Assembly (NCBI GenBank): GCA_964371595.1
Contig: CAYJNJ010000004.1
Location: forward strand, 15,594 to 79,593
Length of the DNA: 64,000 nt
Direction of reading: 5' to 3'
Origin: an uncultured Bacteroidales bacterium
GTDB taxonomy: Bacteria > Bacteroidota > Bacteroidia > Bacteroidales > JAGOPY01
Shown: positions 537-64,000 of the stretch, piece by piece
Numbering within the stretch: position 1 is the stretch's first letter
Layout of the letters: each line of letters begins with the position of its first letter
Notes under the pieces: model-generated
Database searches by the model: none
Told to the model about the DNA's origin: nothing
Seen by the model: the letters and a program-made list of their open reading frames with translations, nothing else
Made by a program: the position numbers and the translations under genes

Positions 537-639
537 TCTCACAAAGATCACAATGAAATTTCACAAAGACCACAAAGGTTGAATTATTAAATATTTCCTT
601 TGAGTTCTCTGCGAAATCCTTAGTGTACTCTGTGTGAAA
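537..639. repeat. Imperfect hairpin with arms made of CACAAAG-type words
   Basis: The left arm TTCTCACAAAGATCACAATGAAATTTCACAAAGACCACAAAGG (537-578) faces CCTTTGAGTTCTCTGCGAAATCCTTAGTGTACTCTGTGTGAAA (597-639) across an 18-nt AT loop. It lies between the moaC stop and the TPR gene start. Confidence 0.7.
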
Positions 640-3312: not shown

Positions 3313-4881
3313 ATGAAAAGGACGATCTACGCTCTTGGTATTTTCTCATTTTTTTGCCTTCAAACTGTCATTTCACAGGATACAATTGTACTCCAGCCCG
3401 GACCTGAGGGCAAGGATGCAATTATTAACACTTACCTTCCAGGTGAAAGCAGGCCTGATTATCAACTTTTCAGGTCTATGGCCTGGACGCATTCAGGCAC
3501 ACCGGCAGTTCATCGTTGCCTGATCGGATGGGACTTGTCAATACTACCCCCGGGAACCGTGATCCTGGATGCCCGGCTTGACCTCTCTTTCGCTACCTGG
3601 GCCCCTAATTATGAATCGCATACAGGTGAAAATGCCTCCTATCTACTGAGGATAACGGAGCCCTGGGTTGAAAACGAAATTACCTGGAATAACCAGCCGG
3701 AAACTACATGGGATGATGTGATAACCCTGCCGCAAAGCATAACTCCTGACCAGGATTATCCGAATATAGACGTCACAGCACAGATCCAGCAGATGGTTTC
3801 CGACCCGGAAAATAACCATGGATTTTTATTAAGATTGGTTACGGAGGAGTATTACCGTTGCATGCTGTTTGCTTCAAGCGATTACCCCGATTCCGATAAA
3901 AGGCCAAGATTGAGAATCATATACATGGGCTGTCTTGCACCAACGGTGGATTTCGAATACCAGGCCAACGGCCAGTCGGTGAACTTTAGCGGCATATCCC
4001 TTACGGCAACAGAATGGCACTGGGATTTCGGGGATGGTGATACTTCGAATGTCCAGGATCCGGTGCATATTTATGAAGAGTCGGGAAATTACCAGGTTTG
4101 CCTGACGGTTGAAGATACCTGCTATTTTGCTGAATATTGCGAAGAAATTGAGATCTGTACAGGGCCTCCGGTTGCAGGTTTCAATTTTATAGTTAATGAA
4201 CGCACCGTCGTGTTTCAGGATACAACTGATTTTGCAACTGAATTTTACTGGGATTTTGGCGATGGTTACTTTTCAAGTCAGCAAAACCCTTTCCATACTT
4301 ACTCGATAAATGGGCAATACCAGGTTTGCCTGACGGCAGGTAACAGTTGTGGTTCAGATACAAGCTGCCAATGGCTGGATATCTGTACTCCTCCGGTTTC
4401 AGAGTTTTATTATTACATGGATGGATATTCCGTCCAGTTTTTAGACATTTCAGAAAATGCAGAAGGGTATTTCTGGGATTTTGGCGATGGTTACTATTCA
4501 AACCTGGTGGATCCCTGGCATGAGTATGAGTCTCCGGGGGATTACAATATTTGCCTTACAACTATGAATAATTGCGGGGCCGATACAATTTGCGATGTAC
4601 TGCATTTGTCGACTGTGTCCATTCCGGAAAGCAGGGAAGAATCATTCGTAATTTACCCCAACCCGGCAAGGGATAAAGTATTTATACAGTTAGCGGTCTA
4701 TGGGGAAGTTGAAATCAGCCTCTTTGACCCCAGTGGTAAAGAGGTCTTGCATCAAAACCGGGAAGCCGCTGTTGATGAGCCGGTTACACTGGATATTACA
4801 GGAGTCATTCCGGGTATCTATTTTGTAAGGATGATATCAGATACGGATATTTCAATGCAAAAACTTTTGATCACGAAATGA
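3313..4881 (+). CDS. Secreted T9SS cargo protein: DNRLRE-like N-domain, three PKD-like repeats, T9SS C-terminal sorting domain
   Basis: It has a signal peptide and an N-domain with ITEPWVENEITWNNQP. WDFGDG..S....P.H.Y...G.Y.VCL occurs three times. The C-terminus reads IYPNPARDKVFIQ...GIYFVRM...KLLITK. Confidence 0.75.
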   Translation: MKRTIYALGIFSFFCLQTVISQDTIVLQPGPEGKDAIINTYLPGESRPDYQLFRSMAWTHSGTPAVHRCLIGWDLSILPPGTVILDARLDLSFATWAPNYESHTGENASYLLRITEPWVENEITWNNQPETTWDDVITLPQSITPDQDYPNIDVTAQIQQMVSDPENNHGFLLRLVTEEYYRCMLFASSDYPDSDKRPRLRIIYMGCLAPTVDFEYQANGQSVNFSGISLTATEWHWDFGDGDTSNVQDPVHIYEESGNYQVCLTVEDTCYFAEYCEEIEICTGPPVAGFNFIVNERTVVFQDTTDFATEFYWDFGDGYFSSQQNPFHTYSINGQYQVCLTAGNSCGSDTSCQWLDICTPPVSEFYYYMDGYSVQFLDISENAEGYFWDFGDGYYSNLVDPWHEYESPGDYNICLTTMNNCGADTICDVLHLSTVSIPESREESFVIYPNPARDKVFIQLAVYGEVEISLFDPSGKEVLHQNREAAVDEPVTLDITGVIPGIYFVRMISDTDISMQKLLITK

Positions 4882-4936
4882 ATTTAACTTATATAATGTC
4901 TACTTTTAATTGGCAACAGATTAAAACATACCTATC

Positions 4937-6505
4937 ATGAAATGCTCCAAAATAATTATTGCAGCTTGTTTCAGTTTAATCTTAAGCAATTCCTTTTCAC
5001 AGGATACACTTGTCCTGCAGCCCGGGCCTGAAGGCAAGGATGCACAGATAAATTCGATTAACCATGATAATAATTATGGTAATACACCAGTCTTAAAAAG
5101 TATGGCATGGACGCATTCAGGGGTTCCTGGACAGCACCGGGGCATTCTTGATTTTGATCTCTCCTTTATTTCCCCTGGATCTACCATTCTCCATGCCAGC
5201 CTGGACCTGTACTTCAAATCATTTGAACCTAACGGCCAGAATCATTCTGAGGATAATGCATCCTACCTGCTGAAAATCACCGAGCCCTGGGATGAAAATG
5301 TGGTTACCTGGGACAACCAGCCTTCTACAACGCTTGAAGATGCTGTTATTCTCCCTTCAAGCACCGATCCGGAGCAGGATTACCCCGGTATCGATGTGAC
5401 CGCTTTAATGCAAATGAAGGTATCAGACCCGGAAAACAACCATGGCCTGTTACTGAAACTGGTCACCGAACAATATTACCGTTGCATGCTGTTTGCTTCC
5501 GGCGATTGCGATGAACCTGAAAAAAGGCCAAGGTTGGAGATAATTTACATAGGCTGCATTGTCCCGACAGTTGACTTCGATTACGAGATTACCGGCCAGT
5601 CGGCGAGCTTTACCGGCATATCCCCTACGGCAACTGAATGGCACTGGGATTTCGGGGATGGTGATACTTCAAATGTCCAGTATCCGGAGCATATCTACGA
5701 AGAGGCGGGAATTTACCAGGTTTGCCTGACGGTTGAAGATACCTGCTATTTTGCTGAATATTGCGAGGAAATTGAGATCTGCACAGGGCCTCCTGTTGCG
5801 GGATTTACATATGATGCCGCTGATCTGGACGTCTTTTTTCAAAATACGACAGATCTTGCTCATGCATATTACTGGGATTTCGGCGATGGCTATTTCTCCG
5901 ACCTTAGCGATCCCTGGCATAATTACCAGGAATCGGGTGTTTACCAGGTATGCCTGACAAGCTGGAACAATTGCGGTACCGATTCGGCTTGCCAATGGAT
6001 TGAATTATGCGCCAGGCCGGCTTCGGACTTCAGCTTTTCTATTGAAGATTTAATGGCTTTGTTCGAAGATCAGTCAGAAGGGGCTGAATCCTGGTACTGG
6101 GATTTCGGGGATGGCTATTATTCAGATCTCCAAAACCCGGTCCATATTTATGATACTCCTGAAAATTACAAAGTCTGCCTGACGACCTGGAACGAATGCG
6201 GCGCCGACACGGCCTGTGAAATGCTCTATATATCGGCTGTTTCCGTTCCCGAGAACGAAGCAGGGGCATTCACAATCTACCCGAATCCTGCAAAGGATAA
6301 GGTATTCATTAAATCTGCTTTTTCCGGAAAACTTGAAATCAGCTTATCTGATCTGAACGGGAAGATAGTCTATAATGAAGAAAAGGATTCAAATATCGGC
6401 GATTTGATCCGGATCAATCTCGATGGTCTTGACTCAGGAATTTATGTTATCAGGCTGGATTCCGGATCGGATCATTCATTTGGTAAACTGGTTGTAATGA
6501 AATAG
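4937..6505 (+). CDS. Tandem paralogue of 3313-4881 (DNRLRE-like domain, three PKD-like repeats, T9SS CTD)
   Basis: It has the same 522-aa length and architecture and ends in IYPNPAKDKVFIK...GIYVIRL...KLVVMK. A central tract is nearly nucleotide-identical to the upstream gene. Confidence 0.75.
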   Translation: MKCSKIIIAACFSLILSNSFSQDTLVLQPGPEGKDAQINSINHDNNYGNTPVLKSMAWTHSGVPGQHRGILDFDLSFISPGSTILHASLDLYFKSFEPNGQNHSEDNASYLLKITEPWDENVVTWDNQPSTTLEDAVILPSSTDPEQDYPGIDVTALMQMKVSDPENNHGLLLKLVTEQYYRCMLFASGDCDEPEKRPRLEIIYIGCIVPTVDFDYEITGQSASFTGISPTATEWHWDFGDGDTSNVQYPEHIYEEAGIYQVCLTVEDTCYFAEYCEEIEICTGPPVAGFTYDAADLDVFFQNTTDLAHAYYWDFGDGYFSDLSDPWHNYQESGVYQVCLTSWNNCGTDSACQWIELCARPASDFSFSIEDLMALFEDQSEGAESWYWDFGDGYYSDLQNPVHIYDTPENYKVCLTTWNECGADTACEMLYISAVSVPENEAGAFTIYPNPAKDKVFIKSAFSGKLEISLSDLNGKIVYNEEKDSNIGDLIRINLDGLDSGIYVIRLDSGSDHSFGKLVVMK

Positions 6506-6534
6506 TTGAGCTCTCTCCGAAAAGCATTATTATG

Positions 6535-6626
6535 GCCACAAAAGCACTAAAACACTAAATAACACTAAAGTTATTGACTTAATAATCTGTTTTTTGTGAC
6601 ATTTTGTGTTTTGGTGTTTTTGTGGC
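6535..6626. repeat. 92-bp REPIN-like hairpin element (CACAAAA/CACTAAA words), copy B
   Basis: It runs GCCACAAAAGCACTAAAACACTAAATAACACTAAAG, then loop TTATTGACTTAATAATCTG, then TTTTTTGTGACATTTTGTGTTTTGGTGTTTTTGTGGC. By hand alignment it is 83/92 identical, without gaps, to 62027-62118. Confidence 0.9.
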
Positions 6627-6636
6627 ATATTTTAAA

Positions 6637-6676
6637 AATCCGTGTAAATCCGTTGCATCCGTGTCATCCGCGTGCC
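6637..6676. repeat. Tandem degenerate ATCCGTG words (four copies)
   Basis: Sequence AATCCGTGTAAATCCGTTGCATCCGTGTCATCCGCGTGCC. A related array at 55402-55440 ends in the same ATCCGYGTGCC. Confidence 0.8.
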
Positions 6677-6708
6677 ATGAAAAAGCAGGCACCCTGGAAA
6701 TCCAAATA

Positions 6709-15716: not shown

Positions 15717-16574
15717 TTACCTGTCAGCGTCCGCAGGACCTGACAGGGTTAAAGCGACAAGTTCCTTCCACAGCTTCTCCTCCGGCACCGGAGCCGTGAC
15801 TTTGATCATTTCTTTACTTACGGGATGGATGAATTCGATATACCGCGAATGAAGGCTGATCGACCCGTCGGGATTGGAGCGCGGCGCCCCGTATTTCAGG
15901 TCGCCTTTGATCGGGCTGCCGATGGCGGCAAGCTGCGCCCTGATCTGGTGATGGCGGCCGGTAAGAAGTTCAACCTCGAGAAGGTCATAACGGTCGCCGG
16001 AAGCAATTTTCCTGTACCTGAGCTCCGCCTTCTGCCGGCCTTCTCCCGGGGTATCGTAAGCATATGACTTATTCTGCTTTTCGTTCCGCGTAAGAAAATG
16101 CGTTAGGTGGAGCCATTCAGAAGTTGGACAATTGGACAATTGGACAATTGGACAAATTAACCTACCTTTTGTGTCCAACTGTCCAACTGTCAACTGTCCA
16201 ACTAAAGCCCAGTAAACCTTCCTTACCTCCCTGCCCTTAAACATCTCATTCATCCTTGCCAGCGCCTTGCTGGTGCGTGCAAAAATGACGGCGCCGCTCA
16301 CCGGCCGGTCGAGGCGGTGCACCACGCCAAGGAAAACCGCCCCCGGCTTATTGTACTTTTCTTTAATGTATAGCTTGAGTGTCTCAACCAAAGGCTCGTC
16401 GCCGGTCTTGTCACCCTGCACGATCTCACCCGGCCGCTTGTTTACTATCAGCAGGTGGTTGTCTTCGAATAGCACAACCTCACCCCCTTTGACCCCCTGC
16501 CCCCTATTCCCCCTCTCCAATATGGAGAGGGGGACAGGGGGTGAGGTCTTTGGACTAATACTGCTCCCTCTCAT
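15717..16574 (-). CDS. RluA-family RNA pseudouridine synthase carrying an internal in-frame hairpin-repeat insertion
   Basis: It has the HRLDRPVSG catalytic motif and [25 protein letters not shown]. The first 33 codons of the long ORF translate the GC-rich palindrome, so the true start may be GTG at 16475. Residues encoded by 16122-16203 are repeat-derived. Confidence 0.8.
16122..16203. repeat. Intragenic hairpin of TTGGACAAT words inside the RluA-family CDS
   Basis: The left arm AGTTGGACAATTGGACAATTGGACAATTGGACAAA is followed by loop TTAACCTACCTTTT and right arm GTGTCCAACTGTCCAACTGTCAACTGTCCAACT. The reading frame stays open. Confidence 0.85.
16478..16546. repeat. 69-bp GC-rich palindromic element, copy 2 (inverse orientation)
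   Basis: Its reverse complement (CCTCACCCCCTGTCCCCCTCTCCATATTGGAGAGGGGGAATAGGGGGCAGGGGGTCAAAGGGGGTGAGG) matches 1166-1234 at roughly 60 of 69 positions. It fills the gap between the panB stop (16555) and the probable rluA-family start. Confidence 0.9.
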
Positions 16575-27224: not shown

Positions 27225-27406
27225 AAATAGGATAATTCGGGTTAAATTGAGGGGGGATAAAAAGTTATCAACTGCCTCTTGACTTCCCTGGATTTATTCC
27301 ATATTTTAGCAGTGTCCATTTCAGCCCCCACTGATTTATCAAACCAAACCAATCCAAATGAAATGGCATTTTCATAATAGACTTTTCGATAGGGTGAATA
27401 GGATTT

Positions 27407-27466
27407 ATTCTATTCTATTCTATTCTATTCTATTCTATTCTATTCTATTCTATTCTATTCTATTCT
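27407..27466. repeat. Perfect pentanucleotide microsatellite (ATTCT)12
   Basis: I counted 12 uninterrupted units, ending 113 nt upstream of the ATG at 27580. Confidence 0.95.
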
Positions 27467-27491
27467 GCTCAATCCCGTCCTGGCAAAAACC

Positions 27492-27579: not shown

Positions 27580-30500
27580 ATGAAAACAAACAATTTTTTT
27601 GTTTTGATGGCATTGATGTGCCTAACCTTATGGATAAAGCCTAGTGGGGCTTTGTCACAACCATTGACGGATTCTACCGCCAATTACTTCACGCTTACTG
27701 ATTATTATGACAACTATTATGATTCATTAATCCAACTCCGGGGGAGCGATAGCATGAAAGGTACCGGCTATAAAGACTACCTTCGGTGGAAATGGTTCTA
27801 TAGCACACGCCGGGGAGCAGATGGTGATATTGGAGAAATGTGGGAATCCATTCAGGATTATTATGATAATTTCCAGCCGCCACAAGGTTATACGGATAAT
27901 TCAGACTGGCAATTTTTCGGACCAATTGGTTTCCCTCTTGGGCACAATGGAATTCCAAGTGATAATACCGGCAAGGGTATGATGCTCTCTATCTGGGTTG
28001 ATGAGGGTGATCATTCGTTAATTTATGCAGGGAGCCATCATGGTGGACTTTGGAAAACAACAGATGGTGGCCAGAATTGGTTTCCGTTGCATGACGATGA
28101 TGTAAGAATTCACGGTGTTAATAGTATAGCAGTTGATCCTGTTGATAATGATATTGTGTATATAACAGGTAATACATCCTTAGGAGAACCATTCAGTAAG
28201 TATTCATCTGGATTATTTAAATCTACTGATGGAGGAGATTCATGGGATCAATTGAATCCAGGAATCAACTATCCAACTTCAAATCAGTCCTCAAGTGTCA
28301 GACAAATCATTGTGGACCCAACAGATCCGGATAATCTATATCTCATTAGTTACCGGAATGTATTCCGCTCAAAAGATAAAGGAGCAAACTGGGAAACAGT
28401 ATTTTTCAAAAAGTATGATCATTGGAATGATTCGACATCATATATGTGGCATAATGGGTTATGGGATTTTGAAATTGCACCCTGGGATACTTCGATGGCT
28501 TACCTGGCTGGTAGTGAGATTTTTAAAATTGAAAATCCAGTCGGAACGTTCGACACAACTAATATATCTGATGATGTTTTTCTTATCGGACTTGACACAA
28601 ATGATTACATGATCGACCATCCTCACCGTTGTGAAATCAGTATGCATAGTAATTATCCAGGTACAGTATGGTTTTGCTATGCATGCAGATACGAACGCAG
28701 TGGGGTTGAACAAGACTGGGACAGAATTGTCAGCTATGATGATACTAATGGATACCAAATAATTTATGATATGACTGAAACTTATTTTGGACCGGGATTA
28801 AGCGCAAGTAAACTCGAATTTGCTGTATCCCCATCCGATCCAGAAATTTTCTATTTAGGTGGAATTGGGATATATAAAATTGACGCTAACCAAATCCCAG
28901 CTGAACGAATCAACATTGCTGATAATACATCAGGTTATCCGGATAGTTGTTGGATTCATGTTGATATGCGCGACATGCAAATATTCAGCGATAGTGAAGG
29001 AAATGATACTTTGTATCTTGCAAATGATGCGGGAATTAGTTGGGGAACCCTTTTTAAAGGGGGAAATGGAGCTTGCTCTGATAACTCCTGGAATTGGAGG
29101 CATCCTTGTACATCGATTGAAAATGGGCTAAATGTAACTGAATATTATGGCATTGGCCTGAGTGAATCGGCACCTGATTTAATGGCAGGTGGTTGTCAGG
29201 ACTTGAGTAATATGCTTCAGAATGGCGATAAATGGGTTAATTTTGGCGATGGTGATGGTAGTGAAGTCACATGGGATCCTAATAATCCAAATATTTTTTA
29301 CTTTAGTGAATGGCAACTCGGATTGTTATATAGGACAAATGATCTGGGTGCAGATCCAAAACAATTCTTCGATATGGCGAAAGAAAGTCTTTTTATCCCG
29401 CTGGAACTCGATCCAAGAGATTCTTCTATCCTTTATTCCGGCGATACTAATCTTTATAAATTTACCGGAATAAATGATTTTTCGAGTCCAGTCTCTCATC
29501 AAACTATCCATGATTTCTCATATGGTATAACCGATATTGAAGCGGTTAAAGCATATATTAATTCGACATGGTTCTATGTTTCCACGTTAAAATCCTACCA
29601 TTCCTGGAGTTCCCCTCCTTCACCTTCCCAATATTCCGAATGCATTTACAGAATGGAAGCGAATGGCAGTAGCGCCTATGACATCAGTCCAAACCTGCTG
29701 GGTTGTCTTGATGGTGTTATTTCCGATATTGAAACGGATCCGGATGATAAGTATAAGCTTTGGGTTGCTTTTGCAGGATATTCCGTGAATAGCTCTCAAA
29801 AAAAGAAAGTATATACCTCTGCAAATGGGGGCAATTCATGGCAAGATTACTCACAAGGCCTTCCTTTGGGAATGCCGGTGTTTGAAATAAGGTATATTCC
29901 GGAGTATGATTATTTGTTAGCAGCAACTGATGTGGGGATTTTTAAAAGAACCACGCAAGATACGGCATGGTATCCTTTCAGCCAAAATCTGCCAGCCGGT
30001 AAGATTGTTACCGATCTGGAGGTGAATCTTGAATATAATACCATTGTGGCTTCTACTTTCGGGAGAGGCTTATGGAAAACTGCGGTTAAATGCGAATATA
30101 ATGAAACTCCGTGGACCATCAGGCAGGATTTGATCTGGGAAAGGGATACGATACTCGACAGAAGCATTGTGGTAGCAGATACGGTGACATTAACGATAAG
30201 GAATTGCAGAATTTATATGCCGGCAGATGCTAAAATTCTTGTCCAGCGCGGCGCTACACTGATACTTGATAACTGTACACTTACCAGTGCCTGCAATGAT
30301 CTGTGGTGGGGTGTGGAAGTCTGGGGAAATAACCATTATTCACAGGCAACCAGTGTCCAGGGAAAAGTTGAAATGAAAAACAATGCACTGATTGAAAAAG
30401 CCAGGAAAGCAATTTTCTGCGGAAAAAACATCGAAAATACCTACCCTGACTGGGCCTATACCGGAGGGATCGTGGATGCAAGGCAATCATTCTTTAAAAA

Positions 30501-32646
30501 TAACCGATACGGAGTCCAGCTATGGGCTTACCATTATCCACAGATTATGTGTAAATTTCAAGGCTGCAATTTCCAAACAACACAAGCCCTTGCTGATGGA
30601 TCATCACCTGAATATTTTATAACCCTTGTCCAGGTGAATGGAGTTGAAATAGCAGGTTGCGATTTTGAATATACTATCGACGGTGAACCTGATTTTACCA
30701 AGCACGGAAGAGGTATTTATTCATTGGATGCCGGTTATAGTCTTATTCCCAATCCTATCAATAACGACAAGGATACCTTAGAAAACCTGGATTATGGAGT
30801 TTTTGCACTGAAATTATATGAAAACCAGCCAATTGACATTCATGACGCGTATTTTGTGAAAAACCTGACCGGTGTGTATGCAAGTGGTATAGAAACACTT
30901 GATTTGTATAGCAATAAATTTCTGGTAGATACGGATTCTATCCCATCGGGTACCCAGATTTACGGAGGTGTGTATCTGGATCATTGCACAGGTTTTATTG
31001 TTGAAGAAAATTATTTTCACGGAAACCTGGGATTAATTGATGAAACAAATAGCATCGGGATAACTATAAATAATTCAGGAGATGCAAATAATGAAATATA
31101 TAAAAATACCTTCTACAGGATGTTTATTGGAACATTAGCACAAAATATAAACAGAAATAGCAAAGATCCGGATGCAGGTCTGAAACTCAACTGTAACGTT
31201 TATAACCTGAATGAATATGATATTGCGGTAACCGGTTCCCAAGGATGTAGTGAATGCGGTATTGCAAGGAATCAGGGATCACCATCTGTACCTGCAGGAA
31301 ACCTGTTTTCCAAAACCGGGATTCACCCGACAAGTGATTTCGATAACCAGATGGACTCTGTCTTTTATTATCATCACAGGGCAATTTTAGGCGGCACTAA
31401 CCTGTGGATCCCTTTATATATTTCAGATAGTGTTTTTCTGATTCCCACTCTAATTACTTGGTATGATACCACTTGTTCCTCTCGACTTGCATCAAAGACT
31501 GTAGAAATCAGTAAAAATCTTTATGAAACATCGCTAACAACTTCTGATTCCCTCAATAACTTGCTTCAACAATTAGTTGATGGTGGCAATACTTCCTTGC
31601 TTGAAATGGATGTTACATTTGCTGAACCTGATGATGCTCTTGATCTCCATGATGAATTACTTACTTATTCACCTTATCTTTCTGATACCATATTAATTAA
31701 ATCAGCTGAAAAGGAGGATGTTTTAGCGCCTGTAATGGTGAAAGAGATCATGGTCGCCAATCCGCAAAGCGCAAAATCAACTCAGGTGTTAGAGGCACTT
31801 GGAAACCGCCAGAATCCTTTACCGGATTATATGATGGCAGAGATTATGCAAGGGAAAGACTCGGTGGCTCATAAAGAACTGCTGGAGTCTGATCTTTCCT
31901 GGTGGGACTTACAAAAGGAAGTTGCGATGAACCAACTGATTCATTATTACAATATGGATACTTCATTGACCAGTCGCGACAGTATTATTGTGCTGCTGGA
32001 AGATGCAAATTCTCTTCATTCACAATACCGTTTGATGATGGCCTACTTTGAAAAAGGGGATACTATTTCGGCTATAAGCACCTTCGAAAGTATTCCCGAC
32101 CAGTTTGACCTGAATGCTTCTCAAAGTGTAATACATCAACATTGGAGCGATTTGATTGATGTAGTCGAGGAATTAAAGCATGATTCCAGTGCCTTGCATG
32201 AATTGGATTCTCTTCAGTTAGCATCTCTTGCTGAACTTTGCGTTTTTGAGGATTTACCCGGAACTTTATCCAGAAACATGCTTTATTACCTGGGTAAGGC
32301 AGAAACAGGGCCTTATTATATTTTACCGGAAAACCGGTTAAAATCTGATTACATTAAACCTGGTGCATTAACCGATCCGGCAAATAAGATAGATTCATTT
32401 ATTAAATTCTATCCAAATCCTGCTAAAAATTATATTATTGTGGAATATACATTTATTAGCAGTTTCGATGATGGTTTGCTATTTATATATTCCTCAGATG
32501 GAAAGTTGCAGTTCAGCAAATCCCTGGATAAGAATAAACATGATTTCATAATTAATACACGGGATTGGGAGCAGGGTGTTTATTTCTATAAATTTGTTAA
32601 CCAAGGTGATAGTGGAGAAAATGGGAAAATCATCATTTTAAAGTGA
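27580..32646 (+). CDS. Giant secreted T9SS cargo protein (1688 aa) with BNR/Asp-box propeller-like region and beta-helix-like region
   Basis: It has a signal peptide, Asp-box motifs (TTDGGQNW, STDGGDSW, SKDKGANW, SANGGNSW) and the C-terminus FYPNPAKNYIIVEY...GVYFYKF...IIILK. Confidence 0.75.
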   Translation: MKTNNFFVLMALMCLTLWIKPSGALSQPLTDSTANYFTLTDYYDNYYDSLIQLRGSDSMKGTGYKDYLRWKWFYSTRRGADGDIGEMWESIQDYYDNFQPPQGYTDNSDWQFFGPIGFPLGHNGIPSDNTGKGMMLSIWVDEGDHSLIYAGSHHGGLWKTTDGGQNWFPLHDDDVRIHGVNSIAVDPVDNDIVYITGNTSLGEPFSKYSSGLFKSTDGGDSWDQLNPGINYPTSNQSSSVRQIIVDPTDPDNLYLISYRNVFRSKDKGANWETVFFKKYDHWNDSTSYMWHNGLWDFEIAPWDTSMAYLAGSEIFKIENPVGTFDTTNISDDVFLIGLDTNDYMIDHPHRCEISMHSNYPGTVWFCYACRYERSGVEQDWDRIVSYDDTNGYQIIYDMTETYFGPGLSASKLEFAVSPSDPEIFYLGGIGIYKIDANQIPAERINIADNTSGYPDSCWIHVDMRDMQIFSDSEGNDTLYLANDAGISWGTLFKGGNGACSDNSWNWRHPCTSIENGLNVTEYYGIGLSESAPDLMAGGCQDLSNMLQNGDKWVNFGDGDGSEVTWDPNNPNIFYFSEWQLGLLYRTNDLGADPKQFFDMAKESLFIPLELDPRDSSILYSGDTNLYKFTGINDFSSPVSHQTIHDFSYGITDIEAVKAYINSTWFYVSTLKSYHSWSSPPSPSQYSECIYRMEANGSSAYDISPNLLGCLDGVISDIETDPDDKYKLWVAFAGYSVNSSQKKKVYTSANGGNSWQDYSQGLPLGMPVFEIRYIPEYDYLLAATDVGIFKRTTQDTAWYPFSQNLPAGKIVTDLEVNLEYNTIVASTFGRGLWKTAVKCEYNETPWTIRQDLIWERDTILDRSIVVADTVTLTIRNCRIYMPADAKILVQRGATLILDNCTLTSACNDLWWGVEVWGNNHYSQATSVQGKVEMKNNALIEKARKAIFCGKNIENTYPDWAYTGGIVDARQSFFKNNRYGVQLWAYHYPQIMCKFQGCNFQTTQALADGSSPEYFITLVQVNGVEIAGCDFEYTIDGEPDFTKHGRGIYSLDAGYSLIPNPINNDKDTLENLDYGVFALKLYENQPIDIHDAYFVKNLTGVYASGIETLDLYSNKFLVDTDSIPSGTQIYGGVYLDHCTGFIVEENYFHGNLGLIDETNSIGITINNSGDANNEIYKNTFYRMFIGTLAQNINRNSKDPDAGLKLNCNVYNLNEYDIAVTGSQGCSECGIARNQGSPSVPAGNLFSKTGIHPTSDFDNQMDSVFYYHHRAILGGTNLWIPLYISDSVFLIPTLITWYDTTCSSRLASKTVEISKNLYETSLTTSDSLNNLLQQLVDGGNTSLLEMDVTFAEPDDALDLHDELLTYSPYLSDTILIKSAEKEDVLAPVMVKEIMVANPQSAKSTQVLEALGNRQNPLPDYMMAEIMQGKDSVAHKELLESDLSWWDLQKEVAMNQLIHYYNMDTSLTSRDSIIVLLEDANSLHSQYRLMMAYFEKGDTISAISTFESIPDQFDLNASQSVIHQHWSDLIDVVEELKHDSSALHELDSLQLASLAELCVFEDLPGTLSRNMLYYLGKAETGPYYILPENRLKSDYIKPGALTDPANKIDSFIKFYPNPAKNYIIVEYTFISSFDDGLLFIYSSDGKLQFSKSLDKNKHDFIINTRDWEQGVYFYKFVNQGDSGENGKIIILK

Positions 32647-35791: not shown

Positions 35792-35830
35792 CGATAAAAT
35801 TACGCGATTGTCAATTGTGGTCCCGAATTT

Positions 35831-35921
35831 GCCACAAAAACACTAAATCACAAAATATCACAAAAATCTGATTTTTAAGTTAATACTTTTGTGTTCTTTA
35901 GTGTTTTCGTGCTTTAGTGGC
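35831..35921. repeat. 91-bp REPIN-like hairpin element, copy C (inverse orientation)
   Basis: It runs GCCACAAAAACACTAAATCACAAAATATCACAAAAATCTGATTTTTAAGTTAATACTTTTGTGTTCTTTAGTGTTTTCGTGCTTTAGTGGC. Its reverse complement aligns along its whole length with copies B and J, including the loop core. Confidence 0.9.
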
Positions 35922-35996
35922 AAAAAGGCTTTTCAGAATAGACCCAAATTTCAAATTTCAATTTTCAATTGACCATCACGTAATCCCTTAAAACCC

Positions 35997-42180: not shown

Positions 42181-42193
42181 TGTGCTAAATTAA

Positions 42194-42226
42194 AAAAGTT
42201 TTAAGTGTTGAGGGTTGAGGGTTGAG
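42194..42226. repeat. Left arm of long-range inverted repeat (TTGAGGG words)
   Basis: AAAAGTTTTAAGTGTTGAGGGTTGAGGGTTGAG pairs with 42482-42509, whose reverse complement is AAAAGTTTTGAGTGTTGAGGGTTGAGGG (27/28 match). Confidence 0.85.
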
Positions 42227-42375
42227 TTATATTGGATTTGTCGATTTTTTTCATTGAAAATGGAACCTGATATTTATCGAAATTTTTTACAATTAAGTAT
42301 TATCATTAAAACTCTAACTCAATAATTCTAACTCAATAATTGAGCCCGCTCCGAAATGTCAAATTTCTGAAAGTT

Positions 42376-42468
42376 GCCACTAAAGCACCAAAACACAAAA
42401 TCACACAAAAAATTGGTTATCAATGTAATAATATTTTGTGAATTTTCGTGTTTTAGTGATTTTGTGGC
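42376..42468. repeat. REPIN-like hairpin element, copy D (divergent loop), nested inside the 42194/42509 inverted repeat
   Basis: It runs from GCCACTAAAGCACCAAAACACAAAATCACACAAAAA to ATTTTGTGAATTTTCGTGTTTTAGTGATTTTGTGGC. Confidence 0.8.
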
Positions 42469-42481
42469 TAAAAAAGGCTTT

Positions 42482-42509
42482 CCCTCAACCCTCAACACTC
42501 AAAACTTTT
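42482..42509. repeat. Right arm of long-range inverted repeat; overlaps the last codons of msrAB
   Basis: Sequence CCCTCAACCCTCAACACTCAAAACTTTT. The terminal KKF-stop of msrAB is encoded within it. Confidence 0.85.
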
Positions 42510-43422
42510 TCGTGTAGCCGTGGCAATACGGCAGCGTCCCTTTATGCTCGTAGTAATCCTGGTGGTATTCTTCGGCAGGCCAGAATGTGGTGGCTTTGGT
42601 CACTTTCGTCACGACCTTATATCCTTTGCCTTTCAGGATGCTGATCAGATTTTCAGCAACTTTTTTTTGTTCATCGTCGATGTAAAAGATCTCTGAGCGG
42701 TACTGGTCGCCGATATCGGGGCCCTGCCCGCCCACCTGGGTGGGGTCGTGGATCTCCAGGAAGAGCTTTGCGAGCTCTTCGTAAGAGACCAGCTCAGGCT
42801 TGAAGACGATTTCAACGGCTTCGGCATGGCCAGTTGTATGGCTGCAGACTTCCTGGTAAGTGGGATGGTCTTTATGACCGCCGATATACCCTGAGGTAAC
42901 TGAAACGACCCCGTTTTTCTGCTGCATGAAGTATTCCACTCCCCAGAAGCAACCGCCGGCAAATATGGCGCGGGAAGTGGCAGGTTCCGCCTGTTGTGGG
43001 GCGGGGACAAAATTCATGGAAACCGAGTTCACGCAATGCCGTGTATCCTTATCCGTAAAGCCTTCGCCAAGGAACACATGCCCGAGGTGCCCGCCGCACC
43101 TGGCACACACGATCTCTGTGCGCATCCCGTCGCGATCGGGTATCCGCACAACGGCACCCTTTATTTCATCATCGAAACTCGGCCAGCCGCAATGCGAATC
43201 GAACTTATCTTCCGACCTGTAAAGCGGGGCATCGCACTGCTTGCAGGTATAGGTCCCTTTTTCTTTTGTATTGGTGTATTCGCCCGTCCAGGGCCTTTCT
43301 GTACCTTTATTGAGAATGACATTTTCTTCCTCGGGTGTCAGCTTGTTATAATTCATGGTTTCCTGTGCTAAATTAATAAGCGGTAGAAAAAGTATCGTGA
43401 ATGTTATGATGATTGTCTTCAT
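42499..43422 (-). CDS. msrAB: Bifunctional methionine sulfoxide reductase MsrB-MsrA, secreted
   Basis: It has a signal peptide. The MsrB half has CxxC pairs and RHCVNS, and the MsrA half has GGCFWG. Confidence 0.9.
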   Translation of the reverse strand: MKTIIITFTILFLPLINLAQETMNYNKLTPEEENVILNKGTERPWTGEYTNTKEKGTYTCKQCDAPLYRSEDKFDSHCGWPSFDDEIKGAVVRIPDRDGMRTEIVCARCGGHLGHVFLGEGFTDKDTRHCVNSVSMNFVPAPQQAEPATSRAIFAGGCFWGVEYFMQQKNGVVSVTSGYIGGHKDHPTYQEVCSHTTGHAEAVEIVFKPELVSYEELAKLFLEIHDPTQVGGQGPDIGDQYRSEIFYIDDEQKKVAENLISILKGKGYKVVTKVTKATTFWPAEEYHQDYYEHKGTLPYCHGYTKKF

Positions 43423-44333: not shown

Positions 44334-44972
44334 ATGAAAAAGATAGTTATAATTTCCCTCATCGCATTATTTTCTGCAGGATCATTCAGTTATGCCCAGG
44401 ATGGCAACTTATTCCTGCAACAATCGCAGATGACCTTCAGCTACCAGATGGGGTTCCCGTCGGGTGACCTTAAGACTTTTATTGATGAAAATGATTACCT
44501 CGGGTGGGATTTTGAATTGAAGGCAATGGTAACGCATAATTTAGCTATTGGCGGACATATCGGCTACCAGGGTTTCTACCAGAAGTTACCGCGCGACACC
44601 TATGAATTTCCGCAAGGCGCGATCACCGCTACCATATTCAAATATTATTACACTATTCCCATGCAGGCCGTGGCAACCTGGTATTTTTTACCTGAAGGCA
44701 TGGTCCAGCCTTATGTTGGGATGAATGTGGGTGTTAATTATAATGAAAGAAGGGGTGAGATCGGGATTTATCTTATTGAAGACAACTCCTGGAATTTCTC
44801 ATTTGCACCGGAAGCCGGATTAATCGTGCCTTTCGGCAAGTATTCCATGTGGGGGGCCAATTTCAGGGCCAAGTACAACTACAATGTTTACAACAGGACC
44901 GATAACCTGGGCCAGGATTTCAACCAGCTTGCTTACTGGAACGTGATGCTCGGGCTGACGTATACATGGTAG
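44334..44972 (+). CDS. Outer-membrane beta-barrel protein (OmpW/porin-like)
   Basis: It has a signal peptide, alternating aromatic and hydrophobic beta-strand periodicity, and a terminal aromatic residue (LGLTYTW). Confidence 0.6.
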   Translation: MKKIVIISLIALFSAGSFSYAQDGNLFLQQSQMTFSYQMGFPSGDLKTFIDENDYLGWDFELKAMVTHNLAIGGHIGYQGFYQKLPRDTYEFPQGAITATIFKYYYTIPMQAVATWYFLPEGMVQPYVGMNVGVNYNERRGEIGIYLIEDNSWNFSFAPEAGLIVPFGKYSMWGANFRAKYNYNVYNRTDNLGQDFNQLAYWNVMLGLTYTW

Positions 44973-44978
44973 CTTTCG

Positions 44979-45032
44979 ACCCCCTCCCGACCTCCGGATC
45001 CCCGCTTTCGCGGGGACCTAACGGGGGAGGAG
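44979..45032. repeat. GC-rich nested palindrome
   Basis: In CCCCCTCCCGACCTCCGGATCCCCGCTTTCGCGGGGACCTAACGGGGGAGGAG, the inner stem is CCCCGC/GCGGGG and the outer stem is CCTCCCG/CGGGGGAGG. It lies directly after the stop at 44972. Confidence 0.8.
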
Positions 45033-45049
45033 AATATGGTGAAAATACT

Positions 45050-45206
45050 AAGAGGCTGTCTCAAAAGTTCTTAACCACAAAGGAGCACGAAGGATTTCAC
45101 GAAGGCACACTAAGGTTCTGATCTGGTAATCAAATACTTTGTGCGACTTAGTGACGTACTTTGTGCGACTTTGTGGTAAAAAGAAGGATTTTGAGACATC
45201 CTCTTC
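45050..45206. repeat. Nested hairpin: outer stem AAGAGGCTGTCTCAAAA/TTTTGAGACATCCTCTT enclosing a CACAAAG/CACGAAG word hairpin
   Basis: The inner arms are 45075-45115 (CCACAAAGGAGCACGAAGGATTTCACGAAGGCACACTAAGG) and 45137-45176 (CTTTGTGCGACTTAGTGACGTACTTTGTGCGACTTTGTGG). Confidence 0.8.
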
Positions 45207-45251
45207 TTTTTCGACCTAAAAGGGTGCAATTTGAATAATGGTCTATGATAA

Positions 45252-54003: not shown

Positions 54004-54031
54004 GTGTTTGGTTTGTTTGCATTTGAAAGCG

Positions 54032-54039
54032 CAAAGCTA
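54032..54039 (-). promoter_or_regulatory. -7 promoter box TAGCTTTG upstream of trxB
   Basis: TAnnTTTG on the minus strand, 29 nt upstream of the ATG at 54003. Confidence 0.4.
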
Positions 54040-54046
54040 AGAAAAA

Positions 54047-54176
54047 GTCATCAGTCTTCAGTCGTCAGTCGTCAGTGAAAAACTTCTTTTCGAAAACTTG
54101 GTCAGTAAAAATATAATGTACATTGATTGATGACTGAAGACTGACGACTGACGACTGAAGACTGACGACTGATGAC
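54047..54176. repeat. Hairpin of heptamer words: (GTCnTCA)x4 facing (TGAnGAC)x7 across a 50-nt spacer
   Basis: The left arm GTCATCAGTCTTCAGTCGTCAGTCGTCAGTG spans 54047-54077. The right arm TGATGAC TGAAGAC TGACGAC TGACGAC TGAAGAC TGACGAC TGATGAC spans 54128-54176. Confidence 0.9.
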
Positions 54177-54183
54177 AATTACA

Positions 54184-54191
54184 TATATTTG
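54184..54191 (+). promoter_or_regulatory. -7-like box TATATTTG immediately upstream of 54196 ATG
   Basis: It matches TAnnTTTG but lies only 4 nt before the ATG. Either the mRNA is leaderless or this is not the functional promoter. Confidence 0.25.
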
Positions 54192-54195
54192 CATC

Positions 54196-57044: not shown

Positions 57045-57092
57045 TTTCGCAAAGTTAAGCAGAGTTTCGCAGAGTTTCGCGGAGAAGTTAAA
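57045..57092. repeat. Left 48-nt arm (TTTCGCAGAG words) of the inverted repeat bracketing the GxxExxY gene
   Basis: TTTCGCAAAGTTAAGCAGAGTTTCGCAGAGTTTCGCGGAGAAGTTAAA pairs imperfectly with the reverse complement of 57529-57576 (TTTCGCAGAGTTGCGCAAAGTTTTCGCAGAGGTACGCAGAGGTTTAAA). Confidence 0.85.
57050..57057 (-). promoter_or_regulatory. -7 promoter box TAACTTTG upstream of obg (inside the repeat arm)
   Basis: TAnnTTTG on the minus strand, 23 nt upstream of the obg ATG. The 13-mer TTCGCAAAGTTAA is shared with the hpt upstream region. Confidence 0.45.
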
Positions 57093-57095
57093 TCA

Positions 57096-57476
57096 TTATA
57101 AACCATTGACTACACGTCTGACTCCATTCTTTAATAAAGGCACATTAAAATTTATCAATAGCCCTAATTTATAATGGCCTAATTTCAAATAAGTTAAAAC
57201 CTGGGCAAAGTGAACATCCATCAAAGAATCAACAGTTTTCAGCTCAATTACAACCAGATTATCAACCAATAAATCAATCCGATAACCATGATTTAAATGA
57301 ACATTTTTATAAATAATGGGTAATGGAAGTTCTTTAACCACCAATAATCCAGACTCCTTCAGATCGTAAAACAAACATTCCCGATAGGCTGATTCAAGTA
57401 ATCCTGGCCCGAGGTGGCTATGAATATCAATAGCCATTCCAATCACTTTTTGTGATATAATATTCTCTGGTAACAT
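57096..57476 (-). CDS. GxxExxY family protein (PD-(D/E)XK nuclease-like fold)
   Basis: 126 aa with the eponymous motif GLLESAY. IDLLVDNLVVIELK resembles the (D/E)xK core strand. The gene is bracketed by 48-nt inverted word-repeat arms. Confidence 0.8.
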   Translation of the reverse strand: MLPENIISQKVIGMAIDIHSHLGPGLLESAYRECLFYDLKESGLLVVKELPLPIIYKNVHLNHGYRIDLLVDNLVVIELKTVDSLMDVHFAQVLTYLKLGHYKLGLLINFNVPLLKNGVRRVVNGL

Positions 57477-57528
57477 AGTTGAAAAATTTAAGGTTAGAAT
57501 AAATGAAGATTGATTGTGAGGATTTTAG

Positions 57529-57576
57529 TTTAAACCTCTGCGTACCTCTGCGAAAACTTTGCGCAACTCTGCGAAA
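57529..57576. repeat. Right 48-nt arm of the inverted repeat bracketing the GxxExxY gene
   Basis: Sequence TTTAAACCTCTGCGTACCTCTGCGAAAACTTTGCGCAACTCTGCGAAA. Confidence 0.85.
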
Positions 57577-58215: not shown

Positions 58216-58264
58216 AATTCCAAATTCCAAATTCCAAATTCCAAATTCCAAATTCCAAATTCCA
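58216..58264. repeat. Perfect heptanucleotide microsatellite (AATTCCA)7
   Basis: I counted 7 uninterrupted units in the divergent hpt/purE intergenic region. Confidence 0.95.
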
Positions 58265-58341
58265 ATCAATGACCATCAATAATAAAACATTCCCGAACTT
58301 AAACCTAAACACTTAACCCTTAACACTTATATTTTACCACT

Positions 58342-58858: not shown

Positions 58859-59192
58859 CCACTAAGGCACTAAGGGCACTTAGAAACACTGAGATTAATG
58901 CTTAATGCTTAATGCTTAATGTTTAATTTTTAATACTTATTTTTTAATGTTTTAGATTCAGTCCTTTTTTTACTAATATTAATACATCCTTTTTTAAAGC
59001 TGTTATGAAAAAAGATTGGAACCCGGAATTTCCTGAAGCCAGCCATGTCAAAATTAATATCTTAAATCTGAGACCGTGGGTATATTTTATAGAATGTAAA
59101 AACGATAGCGGACTTCAAATTGTTAAGAAAATCGTAAAAATCTGATCAATATGTATCCTTAGTGTTTCTTAGTGCACTAAGTGCCTAAGTGG
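58859..59192. repeat. Hairpin with CACTAAG-word arms (58859-58893 / 59157-59192) and a 263-bp loop containing (TTAATGC)n
   Basis: CCACTAAGGCACTAAGGGCACTTAGAAACACTGAG faces CCTTAGTGTTTCTTAGTGCACTAAGTGCCTAAGTGG. The loop begins with a degenerate 7-mer array at 58895-58936. Confidence 0.8.
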
Positions 59193-61983: not shown

Positions 61984-62026
61984 TTTTAAATTCTGAATTG
62001 AGTCTGTGCTGAAAAGCCTTTATATC

Positions 62027-62118
62027 GCCACGAAAGCACGAAAACACTAAATTACACAAAAGTTATTGGCTTAATAATCAGATTTTTGTGATATTTTGTG
62101 TTTTTGTGTTTTTGTGGC
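62027..62118. repeat. 92-bp REPIN-like hairpin element, copy J
   Basis: The sequence is GCCACGAAAGCACGAAAACACTAAATTACACAAAAGTTATTGGCTTAATAATCAGATTTTTGTGATATTTTGTGTTTTTGTGTTTTTGTGGC. It is 83/92 identical to copy B. Confidence 0.9.
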
Positions 62119-62188
62119 ATTATTGACTAATCTGACTTTTTAGACTGGACTCAATGTTGAATGTTAAAGTTTGAATGCGGGATTATTA

Positions 62189-64000
62189 TTAAACTTTATA
62201 GATAACGCCAAGATTCTTCTTCCCGTCAATTTCCACCAGGAGTGGTTTTTCAAACATGATATGCCTGATGAATTCGTCTTCATAAACGGCGGGGAACTGC
62301 TTCAGGTAGTCAAGGTCATAAAATCCATCGTTCATATAAGGGTTTACAGTGAAATAACCGACCCGGAAAGAGGTGAGGTTCTGGAAGAAATGCGTTCCCT
62401 GGCTTGGATCGATGCGGTAGTTCTCCAGTCCTGACTCGACAATAACGCGTGCCTGCGAGATTTGCGGCCACTTCACCGGGATCCCGAGCCAGGGGTCCTG
62501 TGAACCCCATCGGCCGGGACCGATCAGGATGTAGTTCTTCTTTTCCTCCCTGAACTGGTCGTTGATACGGCTGATCCTTTCTACCATATCCGGATTTTTT
62601 GCCGGGTTGAACGAATCGGGCTTCACGTAAACTATATCGCACAGATCGGAAATAGTCCCGTTCCCTAAGGCCGATTTTGAAAAAATGATGGTCTTTTCTA
62701 CCGGCACTTTTTCCAGATCTGTATTCACGCTTTCCTTGTTATCCACGATTGGCCTGATCTGCAGGCAATAGAATATCTTCGGATCGTTGGCCGGGCGGTT
62801 GAGATCAACGGCGAACTCAATTTCAATAGGCTTGCCCATCTCTTTCTGGCCAATTTCAAGTACCGCCTGAAGTATCTCTGCCAGCGGGAATACGTTATGT
62901 TTCAGGATATTTGAGAATGTCACCAGTTTCTTTCCCTCAAAATTCACCCCGTCGCGAAGCACGCCATTTTGCAGGTCATAGGTGGATGCCAGCCATTTCA
63001 GCGAACCGTCAGCTTCGGCTTCCTTAACGGGCAGCCGGAGGATATTCATCCCATCGTCGGTGACAGGCTTAAAATTCTCCGGATCCATGTCGAGCGCATA
63101 AAAATATTTCTGCGTTTCCCTGAGGGCGGCTTCGGGAGAATAGGTCTGCAAAACACGCTTCGGGTATTTTGGTGAAAAGTGCAATGCGAGCCCCCCATCC
63201 ACGATATATTTACCCAGGCCGAGCGCCACGCTGGCCACCCCGTCTTCGGGCTTTTCAGGATCCAGCGGGTAGAAATTGATCGAACGGGCAACCCCTGAAA
63301 AAGACGGGTAAAAGCGGTTTCCATATCTTGTCCCGGCCACCGTTTGCATCACTATGCCCATTTTCTCCTCGTCGATGATATTAGAAGTGGCTGCCATGTA
63401 AGCTTTGCTTGCTCTGAAGTAGGTCGATGCATATACGCTTTTGATGGCATTGCTGAGCATCTCCATCATCACGCGCTCGTTATCCATCACGTAAGGCACC
63501 ATATAGGTCGAATAAATGCCTGCAAATGGCTGGTAGTGTGAATCTTCGAGCAGGCTGGACGATCTTACCGCAATAGGGCTGCGGACATAGGAGATCAGTG
63601 TGTAAAGGTCTTCATGGATGCGGAACGGGAGCCTGGCCTGGATGAACTCTTTGAGGATCTCCTCGTCGCTTCGGTCGGAAAGGGCGATTTCATAAAGATT
63701 ATTCTCCTCCATGAACTCATCGAAAATATCGGTGCAAAGCACAACCGTTCTCGGGATGGTGATGTAAACCCCCGGCCACTTTTCCAGCATGCGGTTACGC
63801 TTGATGAGCATGTCGAGGAAGGCCAGGCCGCGGGCTTTTCCCCCAATCGATCCTTCCCCGATACGGGTGAAAGTAAGGTATTCGTCGAAACGCTCCCGGC
63901 GGAACTGGGCAATCACACCCCGTGATTTGCTGATGCGGAAGCTGGCAATGGAGTCGAATAGATAACGGCGCACTTCGTCGAGGTCGGCGAAATCATCCAG
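62189..64000 (-). CDS. PEP/pyruvate-binding (PPDK N-terminal-like) domain protein, partial (N-terminus beyond right edge)
   Basis: GGKARGLAFL and SSSLLEDS are ATP-grasp/PPDK_N-type motifs. The frame stays open from 63973 to the window end (…LDDFADLDEVRRYLF), so the listed Met is probably internal. Confidence 0.7.
   Translation of the reverse strand: MDDFADLDEVRRYLFDSIASFRISKSRGVIAQFRRERFDEYLTFTRIGEGSIGGKARGLAFLDMLIKRNRMLEKWPGVYITIPRTVVLCTDIFDEFMEENNLYEIALSDRSDEEILKEFIQARLPFRIHEDLYTLISYVRSPIAVRSSSLLEDSHYQPFAGIYSTYMVPYVMDNERVMMEMLSNAIKSVYASTYFRASKAYMAATSNIIDEEKMGIVMQTVAGTRYGNRFYPSFSGVARSINFYPLDPEKPEDGVASVALGLGKYIVDGGLALHFSPKYPKRVLQTYSPEAALRETQKYFYALDMDPENFKPVTDDGMNILRLPVKEAEADGSLKWLASTYDLQNGVLRDGVNFEGKKLVTFSNILKHNVFPLAEILQAVLEIGQKEMGKPIEIEFAVDLNRPANDPKIFYCLQIRPIVDNKESVNTDLEKVPVEKTIIFSKSALGNGTISDLCDIVYVKPDSFNPAKNPDMVERISRINDQFREEKKNYILIGPGRWGSQDPWLGIPVKWPQISQARVIVESGLENYRIDPSQGTHFFQNLTSFRVGYFTVNPYMNDGFYDLDYLKQFPAVYEDEFIRHIMFEKPLLVEIDGKKNLGVIYKV

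Follow-up and report, generated by a model that had tools for sequence, protein, structure and literature searches.

Word-array hairpins in a Bacteroidales genome

The studied sequence is a 64,000-nt stretch (hereafter the window) of contig CAYJNJ010000004.1 from an uncultured Bacteroidales bacterium (GCA_964371595.1). It comes from a sediment metagenome, and relatives are found in groundwater metagenomes. The window contains four copies (B, C, D and J) of a ~92-nt hairpin with the structure GCCAC(N-AAA-R-CAC)n...loop...(GTG-Y-TTT-N)nGTGGC, further hairpins of the same architecture built from other words, and a gene for a GxxExxY (PD-(D/E)XK) protein bracketed by related arrays (Table 1). No tRNA gene is nearby. 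The observation made in an earlier note, which had described these hairpins from the sequence alone, was confirmed, including the positions of the copies, the outer stems and the hairpins made of other word sets. All four copies start with GCCAC and end with GTGGC. Copies B and J are 83/92 identical without gaps, the reverse complement of C is 83/92 identical to J and 80/92 to B, and D, which shares the arms but has a divergent loop, is 72-78/93 identical to the others. The words have a period of 8 nt (CAC-N-AAA-R), not 7. The conserved flank pointed out in the note (GAAAAGCC TTT..GCCAC) is also real, and is the inner half of a 20-nt terminal inverted repeat (TIR) described below.

The arm pattern GCCACNAAANCACNAAANCAC, allowing up to 2 mismatches, matches the window 9 times, whereas 0.02 matches are expected from shuffled sequence. 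All four copies fold as long hairpins with z-scores of -3 to -8, and one strand is always favored because several mismatches are G.U pairs on that strand. No Rfam family reached its gathering threshold in the window, and at relaxed E-values there were only chance matches to eukaryotic miRNA hairpins. Of eight word hairpins in the window, five lie in convergent gaps, two between co-directional genes and one (that at 54031) between divergent genes, and seven lie after the 3' end of at least one gene.

Table 1. Hairpins, repeats and associated features in the 64-kb window
Position	Strand	Feature	Observations
6507-6526	+	Copy B, IS1182-like TIR	TGAGCTCTCTCCGAAAAGCA; starts 1 nt after the stop codon of the PKD/T9SS gene 4937-6505
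6535-6626	+	Copy B, core word-array hairpin	No recognizable right-hand TIR
6637-6678	+	Array of ATCCGTG words (CACGGAT on the other strand)	Abuts copy B; depth in metagenome X6 is 678 against about 8 nearby
35831-35921	-	Copy C, core hairpin	Oriented on the minus strand
35927-35946	-	Copy C, TIR	TGGGTCTATTCTGAAAAGCC; a further outer inverted repeat, ATTACGYGATKGTCAATTG, lies at 35799-35817 / 35966-35984
42341-42360	+	Copy D, TIR	TGAGCCCGCTCCGAAATGTC
42376-42468	+	Copy D, core hairpin	Same arms, divergent loop; in a 318-nt msrAB-DUF1295 spacer that is about 25 nt in relative L117
42193-42510		Outer inverted repeat enclosing D	Built of GTTGAGG words (42193-42226 / 42482-42510)
61999-62153	+	Copy J, complete 155-bp MITE	Left TIR 61999-62018, core 62027-62118, right TIR 62134-62153; outer stem TGAGTC../..GACTCA; no clear target-site duplication; 62000-62212 is replaced by 85 nt in the related strain in X7
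45050-45207		Hairpin of ACCAC/CACGAAGG words (45075-45176)	Wrapped in the outer repeat AAGAGGMTGTCTCAAAAG (45050-45073/45177-45207); 45029-45249 is replaced by 15 nt in the related strain in X7
537-639		Hairpin of CACAAAG words	In a convergent gap; 445-684 is replaced by 237 unlike letters in the X6 and X7 relatives
58859-59192		Hairpin of ACCAC/CACTAAGG words	Loop of about 250 nt
54031-54192		Hairpin with arms of ACTGA[ACT]G heptamers	In a divergent gap; heptamers at 54133-54170
58218-58266		Heptamer array	(AATTCCA)7
57045-57575	-	GxxExxY (PD-(D/E)XK) gene 57096-57476 with arms	Bracketed by inverted CGCAGAG-type word arrays (57535-57575 and 57045-57084); arm duplex energy -52.8 kcal/mol against -17.1 +/- 3.8 for shuffles

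Abundance and variation between relatives

In the source metagenome run (X1), contig depth over J is 227 against 7.8 on the flanks, about 29 times higher, indicating that the family is high-copy there. In contrast, we found a single CAC-word array in 848 kb of unselected Bacteroidota-like DNA retrieved through MsrAB homologs, compared with nine in the window. The family is lineage-patchy, not a general feature of the phylum.

The earlier note had proposed that the same sequence at every orthologous locus in relatives would argue for ancient conserved terminators and against a dispersed element, and the comparison came out in favor of a dispersed element. A strain about 97% identical, found in metagenome run X7, lacks both the J region and the hairpin at 45075 with its outer stem, although at J it has 85 nt of other sequence and not a clean empty site. 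The region of the hairpin at 537 is replaced in the relatives found in both X6 and X7. The closest MsrAB locus in public metagenomes (L117, 81% protein identity) keeps the msrAB-DUF1295 gene order with a ~25-nt spacer and no hairpin, where the window has 318 nt holding D and its outer stem.

Distribution across phyla

An exact scan of one genome per species with GCCACNAAAGCACNAAAACAC identified at least 115 loci, where we estimate that about four would be expected by chance (collection size over 4^19). These fall in Bacteroidales, Saprospiraceae/Lewinellaceae, Ignavibacteria, Balneolaceae, Planctomycetota, Acidobacteriota and Calditrichota. One carrier of the module is Neolewinella antarctica DSM 105096 (loci L012 and L050). 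Single hits lie on MAG contigs labeled Synechococcus and Bifidobacterium, which were not examined and may be mis-binned. High-GC taxa use CACGAAAG or CACGAAGG words, and the loops differ in length and sequence. Scans of 2.9 million viral contigs gave 0 and 1 hits, so a phage origin was not supported. In the 115 loci plus the window we defined 116 hairpins, of which 76 have GCCAC at the base of the stem and 40 are in a permuted form (words-GTGGC-loop-GCCAC-words).

IS1182-like terminal inverted repeats

Many Bacteroidia copies are bounded by TGAG[TC]C[CT]ACTCC[AG]AAAAGTC and its complement. Nine of eleven two-ended copies have abutting direct repeats of at least 4 nt (ACAT, TAAT, AGAT, TTAA, TTAT, ATGC, and ATTT three times), with a chance probability of about 4e-19. 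In one of the hairpin loci (L033), the same 20-mer is followed by a DUF772 transposase gene, whose full-length homologs are 515-531 aa and sit in multi-copy elements that begin TGA[GT]TCCACTCCGAAAAG and end ..GGACTCA. Five long-read copies of these elements (L198-L202) have perfect 4-bp duplications (ATAT, AGGT, ATTG, TCGA and ATTT), and the 20-mer also forms the ends in L197, L203 and L204-215. Pfam models identify DUF772 with DDE_Tnp_1/_1_6 in the transposases. The best NCBIfam model is NF033551 (IS1182) over nearly its full length, but at 101-125 bits, below the curated cut-off of 270, and we refer to the elements as IS1182-like for this reason. The related ~155-bp Bacteroidia elements, with both repeats and 4-bp duplications, are MITEs with IS1182-like ends.

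In the window, each of the four copies has an adjacent end of this type (TGAGYC..GAAAAGYC), and the outer stem ATTGAGTC/GACTCAAT around J that was described in the note is composed of these repeats. Copies are about 155 bp and contain no ORF. Thirteen copies from seven genomes, including part of the loop, align as one family. Only J keeps both TIRs. Whether the window copies made target-site duplications of the parental length is left undecided, as none is seen at J and B, C and D keep only one TIR each. No IS1182-like transposase was found in the 64 kb, and the rest of the source genome was not examined for an autonomous partner.

The core is not IS sequence

The IS1182-like copies contain no CAC arrays. 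Only 13 of 42 low-GC hairpins with GCCAC at the base of the stem have the TIR, and none of 24 high-GC hairpins or 21 permuted hairpins do. Directly at the GCCAC/GTGGC boundary we found no target-site duplications beyond T-run coincidences. In 42 hairpins, CAC and AAA pair almost always, whereas the N positions are mismatched in 31-67% of cases and the R positions are mismatched or G.U in 57-83%, placing a mismatch or wobble at every fourth position of the stem. This periodic pattern is not what a stem selected only for pairing would show. Either each word is recognized sequence-specifically, or arms made of near-identical words gain and lose units by slippage and then re-pair in a shifted register.

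Association with GxxExxY genes

We clustered all ORFs of 120 residues or more (stop to stop) in the 115 hairpin loci. The clusters were mostly large sensor-type or ordinary-looking proteins, and none looked transposase-like from its sequence, although they were not scanned against family models. One recurrent small protein was a GxxExxY protein (TIGR04256; PF13366, PDDEXK_3), the only cluster that we followed up and found tied to the arrays. In hairpin loci L109, L064 and L014 the gene lies between GCCAC-CACNAAA words and TTTNGTG-GTGGC words, and in L088, L094 and L096 it lies between CGCAAAG-type arrays or between two whole hairpins. In the window, the gene lies between obg and a phosphoribosyltransferase gene. 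Further homologs from public assemblies (L218, L228, L234, L216, L217 and L241-243) show the same arrangement. In all, 13 of 13 distinct loci inspected are bracketed by inverted C[AG]C-N-AA[AG] word arrays or by whole hairpins. Seven GxxExxY genes or fragments lie in 0.83 Mb of hairpin loci, against none in 0.85 Mb of control loci.

The arms of B, J, C and D, which are themselves gene-less, are 22-28/30 identical to arms around GxxExxY genes in five of these loci. Gene and arms stay together across 64-86% protein identity while sitting at different genomic sites (SCO1/PCuAC and TonB-receptor/PorV), and the cassette is stable between close strains. A strict match between protein subfamily and word type, suggested by 12 loci, was contradicted by L241, which has ACCAC words upstream and ACCGC words downstream. 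CAC and CGC words are variants of one superfamily.

The protein family is very large (at least 8000 hits), its function is listed as unknown, and it is reported to be horizontally mixed among bacterial divisions (PMC3424549). A sequence search found no PDB relative, and a structure search with a confident predicted model (pLDDT 93) gave only weak, generic PD-(D/E)XK matches (lambda exonuclease, Cas4 and Hjc).

Genomic context and transcription

From crude ORF calls, 68 hairpins could be classified, of which 44 are co-directional, 15 convergent and 9 divergent; high-GC loci, for which ORF calling failed, were left out. The favored RNA strand matches gene direction in 12 cases and opposes it in 16, and the T-rich side is sense in 3 and antisense in 6. 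Distances to stop and start codons showed no signal. The window copies have no U-tract, although some copies in other genomes are followed by T-runs. No RNA runs exist for the source metagenome. Metatranscriptome contigs over one carrier locus (L038) stop at the hairpin edges, which is equally expected from assembly breaks at a palindromic repeat and was uninformative.

Origin and possible function of the hairpins

With reasonable confidence, we interpret the four 92-bp hairpins as copies of a ~150-bp non-coding transposable element, a MITE. The data directly support a real, high-copy and strain-variable repeat, at least one IS1182-like 20-bp TIR at each window copy, 4-bp AT-rich target-site duplications at related full-length copies as at the autonomous IS copies, a core module that is independent of the IS and found across phyla, and a consistent physical association of that module with GxxExxY genes. 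What we infer from this is that an IS1182-like transposase supplied in trans binds the two ends, cuts the element out or copies it, and inserts it into AT-rich intergenic DNA, with copies surviving mainly just after stop codons and in convergent gaps, where they would do least harm. Transposition is shown for relatives and not for the four window copies, and the transposases score below the family cut-off (117-125 bits against 270). We further infer that the core was captured between two IS ends and then spread as a unit, and that the tandem-word build lets the stem pair in any register after slippage, which would explain why CAC and AAA always pair while N and R are often mismatched. Cross-phylum conservation of CAC and AAA with a free N, however, suggests sequence-specific recognition, which the slippage model does not require. 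As most core hairpins have neither TIR nor duplication, IS-mediated movement cannot explain the family as a whole. In this view the elements are selfish, mobile foldback DNA.

The interpretation offered in the earlier note was partly supported. Its suggestion of mobile REPIN-like elements is right in spirit, given that copies are over-represented, missing at orthologous sites and, in related copies, bounded by TIRs and duplications, but the ends match IS1182-like DDE elements and not a RAYT/IS200 system, and the enzyme gene inside the repeats encodes a GxxExxY PD-(D/E)XK nuclease. Its proposals of bidirectional terminators and of sigma-factor decoys were not supported. Its statement that no formal description exists agrees with our literature searches, in which we found no account of the word hairpins, of an IS1182 MITE of this kind or of the GxxExxY association.

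A more speculative possibility, which we hold only tentatively, is that the core hairpin is the cognate substrate of GxxExxY nucleases in a cross-phylum, REP/RAYT-like (REPtron-like) partnership. A ~125-aa PD-(D/E)XK nuclease would recognize the periodic C[AG]C-N-AAR words and nick or cleave the foldback, and repair or recombination between the near-identical arms would copy hairpins, and sometimes the gene, to new sites. Solo hairpins, which outnumber gene-bearing cassettes about 40 to 1, would be the miniature, gene-less form, and the IS1182-like ends a secondary capture in Bacteroidia. This is consistent with the bracketing of all 13 loci, the near-identity of their arms to those of B, J, C and D, the persistence of gene and arms at different sites, the enrichment over control loci, the horizontal mixing of the family, and the lack of target-site duplications at the core, as with REPs. 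There is no biochemical evidence, however, and the structural similarity is only generic. The association could also mean the reverse, that the gene cassette prefers hairpins as landing sites, or that the hairpins merely insulate a selfish gene. Word type does not strictly track protein subfamily, and the cassette does not vary between close strains. If correct, this hypothesis would assign a function to a protein family with thousands of members, explain tandem-word intergenic hairpins in many phyla, and constitute a second enzyme-plus-palindrome partnership, independent of REP/RAYT. It might also bear on the unexplained heptamer and octamer word arrays of Cyanobacteria, Beggiatoaceae and Bacteroidota.

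It is unlikely that the hairpins are host-selected RNA elements, such as bidirectional terminators or 3'-end stabilizers, whose spread reflects selection for that function. Their position after genes in the window, the stable RNA folds, the modest strand asymmetry through G.U pairs (p = 0.004) and the T-runs at some copies in other genomes would fit such a role. However, the stems are A/T-rich and interrupted, unlike the G+C-rich uninterrupted stem followed by a U-tract of an intrinsic terminator, neither the favored strand nor the T-rich side follows gene direction, and 9 of 68 hairpins lie in divergent gaps. In addition, they are absent at orthologous sites, one was inserted into a 25-nt operon-like spacer, and they are nearly absent from viral contigs. 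Some copies may still terminate transcription.

Classical REP/REPIN elements moved by a RAYT (IS200/IS605-like Y1 transposase) are a still less likely explanation. The hairpins are short, high-copy extragenic palindromes with no duplication at the core boundary, but the head is GCCAC or ACCAC in all copies and not the GTAG or CGTC tags that define the known REP superfamilies (PMC3733652). Whether a Y1 gene is flanked by the repeats is not settled by the ORF clusters, among which none looked transposase-like, as a single-copy RAYT elsewhere in a genome would have been missed. A decoy for a sigma factor or another DNA-binding protein, acting through TTTG, is very improbable despite the conservation of CAC and AAA around a free N, given that Acidobacteriota and Planctomycetota use CACGAAG/CTTCGTG words lacking TTTG, that the 8-nt spacing does not reproduce the -33/-7 geometry of Bacteroidota promoters, and that copies come and go between close strains.

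These elements break metagenome assemblies and inflate intergenic DNA, with depth spikes of 30- to 80-fold, and can be mistaken for terminators, small RNAs or CRISPR-like repeats in Bacteroidota, Ignavibacteriota, Balneolaceae, Acidobacteriota and Planctomycetota. The bracketing of GxxExxY genes by the same module at every locus inspected gives this family of unknown function a candidate substrate. Under the capture model, the MITE was not made by deleting the inside of an IS; instead, two IS ends captured a pre-existing foldback module.

Comparison with known systems

Hairpin-bounded intervening sequences of 23S rRNA also carry a small ORF in the loop of a long stem formed by flanking inverted repeats. 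They lie inside rRNA genes and are excised by RNase III, whereas the cassettes described here, for which RNA processing was not tested, lie between protein-coding genes. The BrickBuilt MITE of Porphyromonas gingivalis (PMC4596501) is likewise a strictly intergenic Bacteroidota MITE with an interior of short tandem repeats, but it carries a 23-nt direct-repeat minisatellite with small inverted ends and is limited to one species, while the 8-nt words here form two inverted arrays that make one long hairpin. The intergenic TAACTGA heptamer arrays of Beggiatoaceae, Cyanobacteria and a few Bacteroidetes (PMC4679880) share degenerate 7-8-nt tandem words and a patchy cross-phylum distribution that suggests horizontal transfer, with no known mechanism, and the window itself contains ACTGA[ACT]G and AATTCCA heptamers. 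Those arrays are direct repeats, mostly just upstream of start codons, are not inverted pairs that form hairpins, and have no reported nuclease or IS link.

REP/REPIN elements with their RAYT gene (REPtrons) are similarly dispersed extragenic palindromes without target duplications, with an enzyme gene flanked by inverted copies of the very repeat that is dispersed genome-wide. The word hairpins differ in the GCCAC head, in arms of tandem degenerate words with periodic mismatches, in a flanked gene encoding a ~125-aa PD-(D/E)XK (GxxExxY) nuclease and not a Y1/HUH transposase, and in a module that spans at least six phyla. IS-derived bacterial MITEs, such as Correia elements and MITEAba12, are also small, non-coding, intergenic and multi-copy, with terminal inverted repeats identical to those of an autonomous IS, short target-site duplications, seen here at related copies, and presence/absence differences between strains. 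Here the parent is an IS1182-like element, for which we found no described MITE, and the interior is not a deleted IS but a foreign foldback made of tandem 8-nt words.

Additional repeats and sequence features

The perfect heptamer tandem repeat lies in a divergent promoter region, where contig depth exceeds 1000 in metagenomes X6 and X7, against about 10 nearby, and similar repeats lie beside hairpin copy C. The word array after hairpin copy B has a depth of 678 in X6, and the same word ending in GTGGC is seen in locus L106. Relatives in X6 and X7 carry an insertion made of CGCAGAG/CACAGAG words (TACGCAGAGTTACACAGAGCTATCGCAGAGTTACGCGGAG), and word arrays therefore differ by insertion or deletion between close strains. 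The related strain in X7 also has a single copy of the PKD/T9SS-tail gene (joint 3887 to 5519), whereas the window has two in tandem, with about 1624-nt periodicity.

Positions of further repeats and associated features (window coordinates unless a locus is named)
Position	Feature
1165-1236, 16476-16547 and 44980-45030	G+C-rich palindromes of the type CCCCCTCTCC..GGAGAGGGGG
3313-6505	Two tandem 522-aa PKD/T9SS-tail genes
6637-6678	Array of ATCCGTG words (CACGGAT on the other strand), directly following copy B
27396-27475	(TATTC)n pentanucleotide microsatellite, about 14 units
27580-32646	1688-aa ORF
about 35945-35966	AAATTTC repeats beside copy C
54133-54170	Hairpin arms of ACTGA[ACT]G heptamers
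58218-58266	Perfect heptamer tandem repeat, (AATTCCA)7
58859-59192	CACTAAGG-word hairpin with a ~250-nt loop
about 59006-59146	46-codon ORF within that loop
61719-61722	40-nt insertion in relatives in X6 and X7
L241 696-950	GxxExxY cassette with tandem hairpins, followed by a reverse-transcriptase (RVT_1) gene
L033 5822-6532	IS1182-like transposase gene overlapping an opposite-strand ORF

What looks like a second repeat family is represented by the G+C-rich palindromes. The first two are 89% complementary to each other, and one follows gene 44334-44972. Similar palindromes flank IS copies in L212 and L213, two of the loci carrying IS1182-like elements.

A ~170-nt repeat with different ends (TAACTCACCTTACGCA) was found in L034, L061, L071 and L080, loci of an Ignavibacterium album MAG. 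Its centre is the permuted form of the core, words-GTGGC-T-rich loop-GCCAC-words, and this suggests that the core module has been captured by more than one kind of element. In L033, the opposite-strand ORF has weak, sub-threshold DDE transposase domains and is possibly a second inserted IS.

The end of the small ORF held in the ~250-nt hairpin loop resembles, by eye only, a T9SS C-terminal sorting domain. The pentanucleotide microsatellite is upstream of the 1688-aa ORF. The ACTGA[ACT]G heptamers are close to the TAACTGA repeats reported in Beggiatoaceae, Cyanobacteria and a few Bacteroidetes (PMC4679880).
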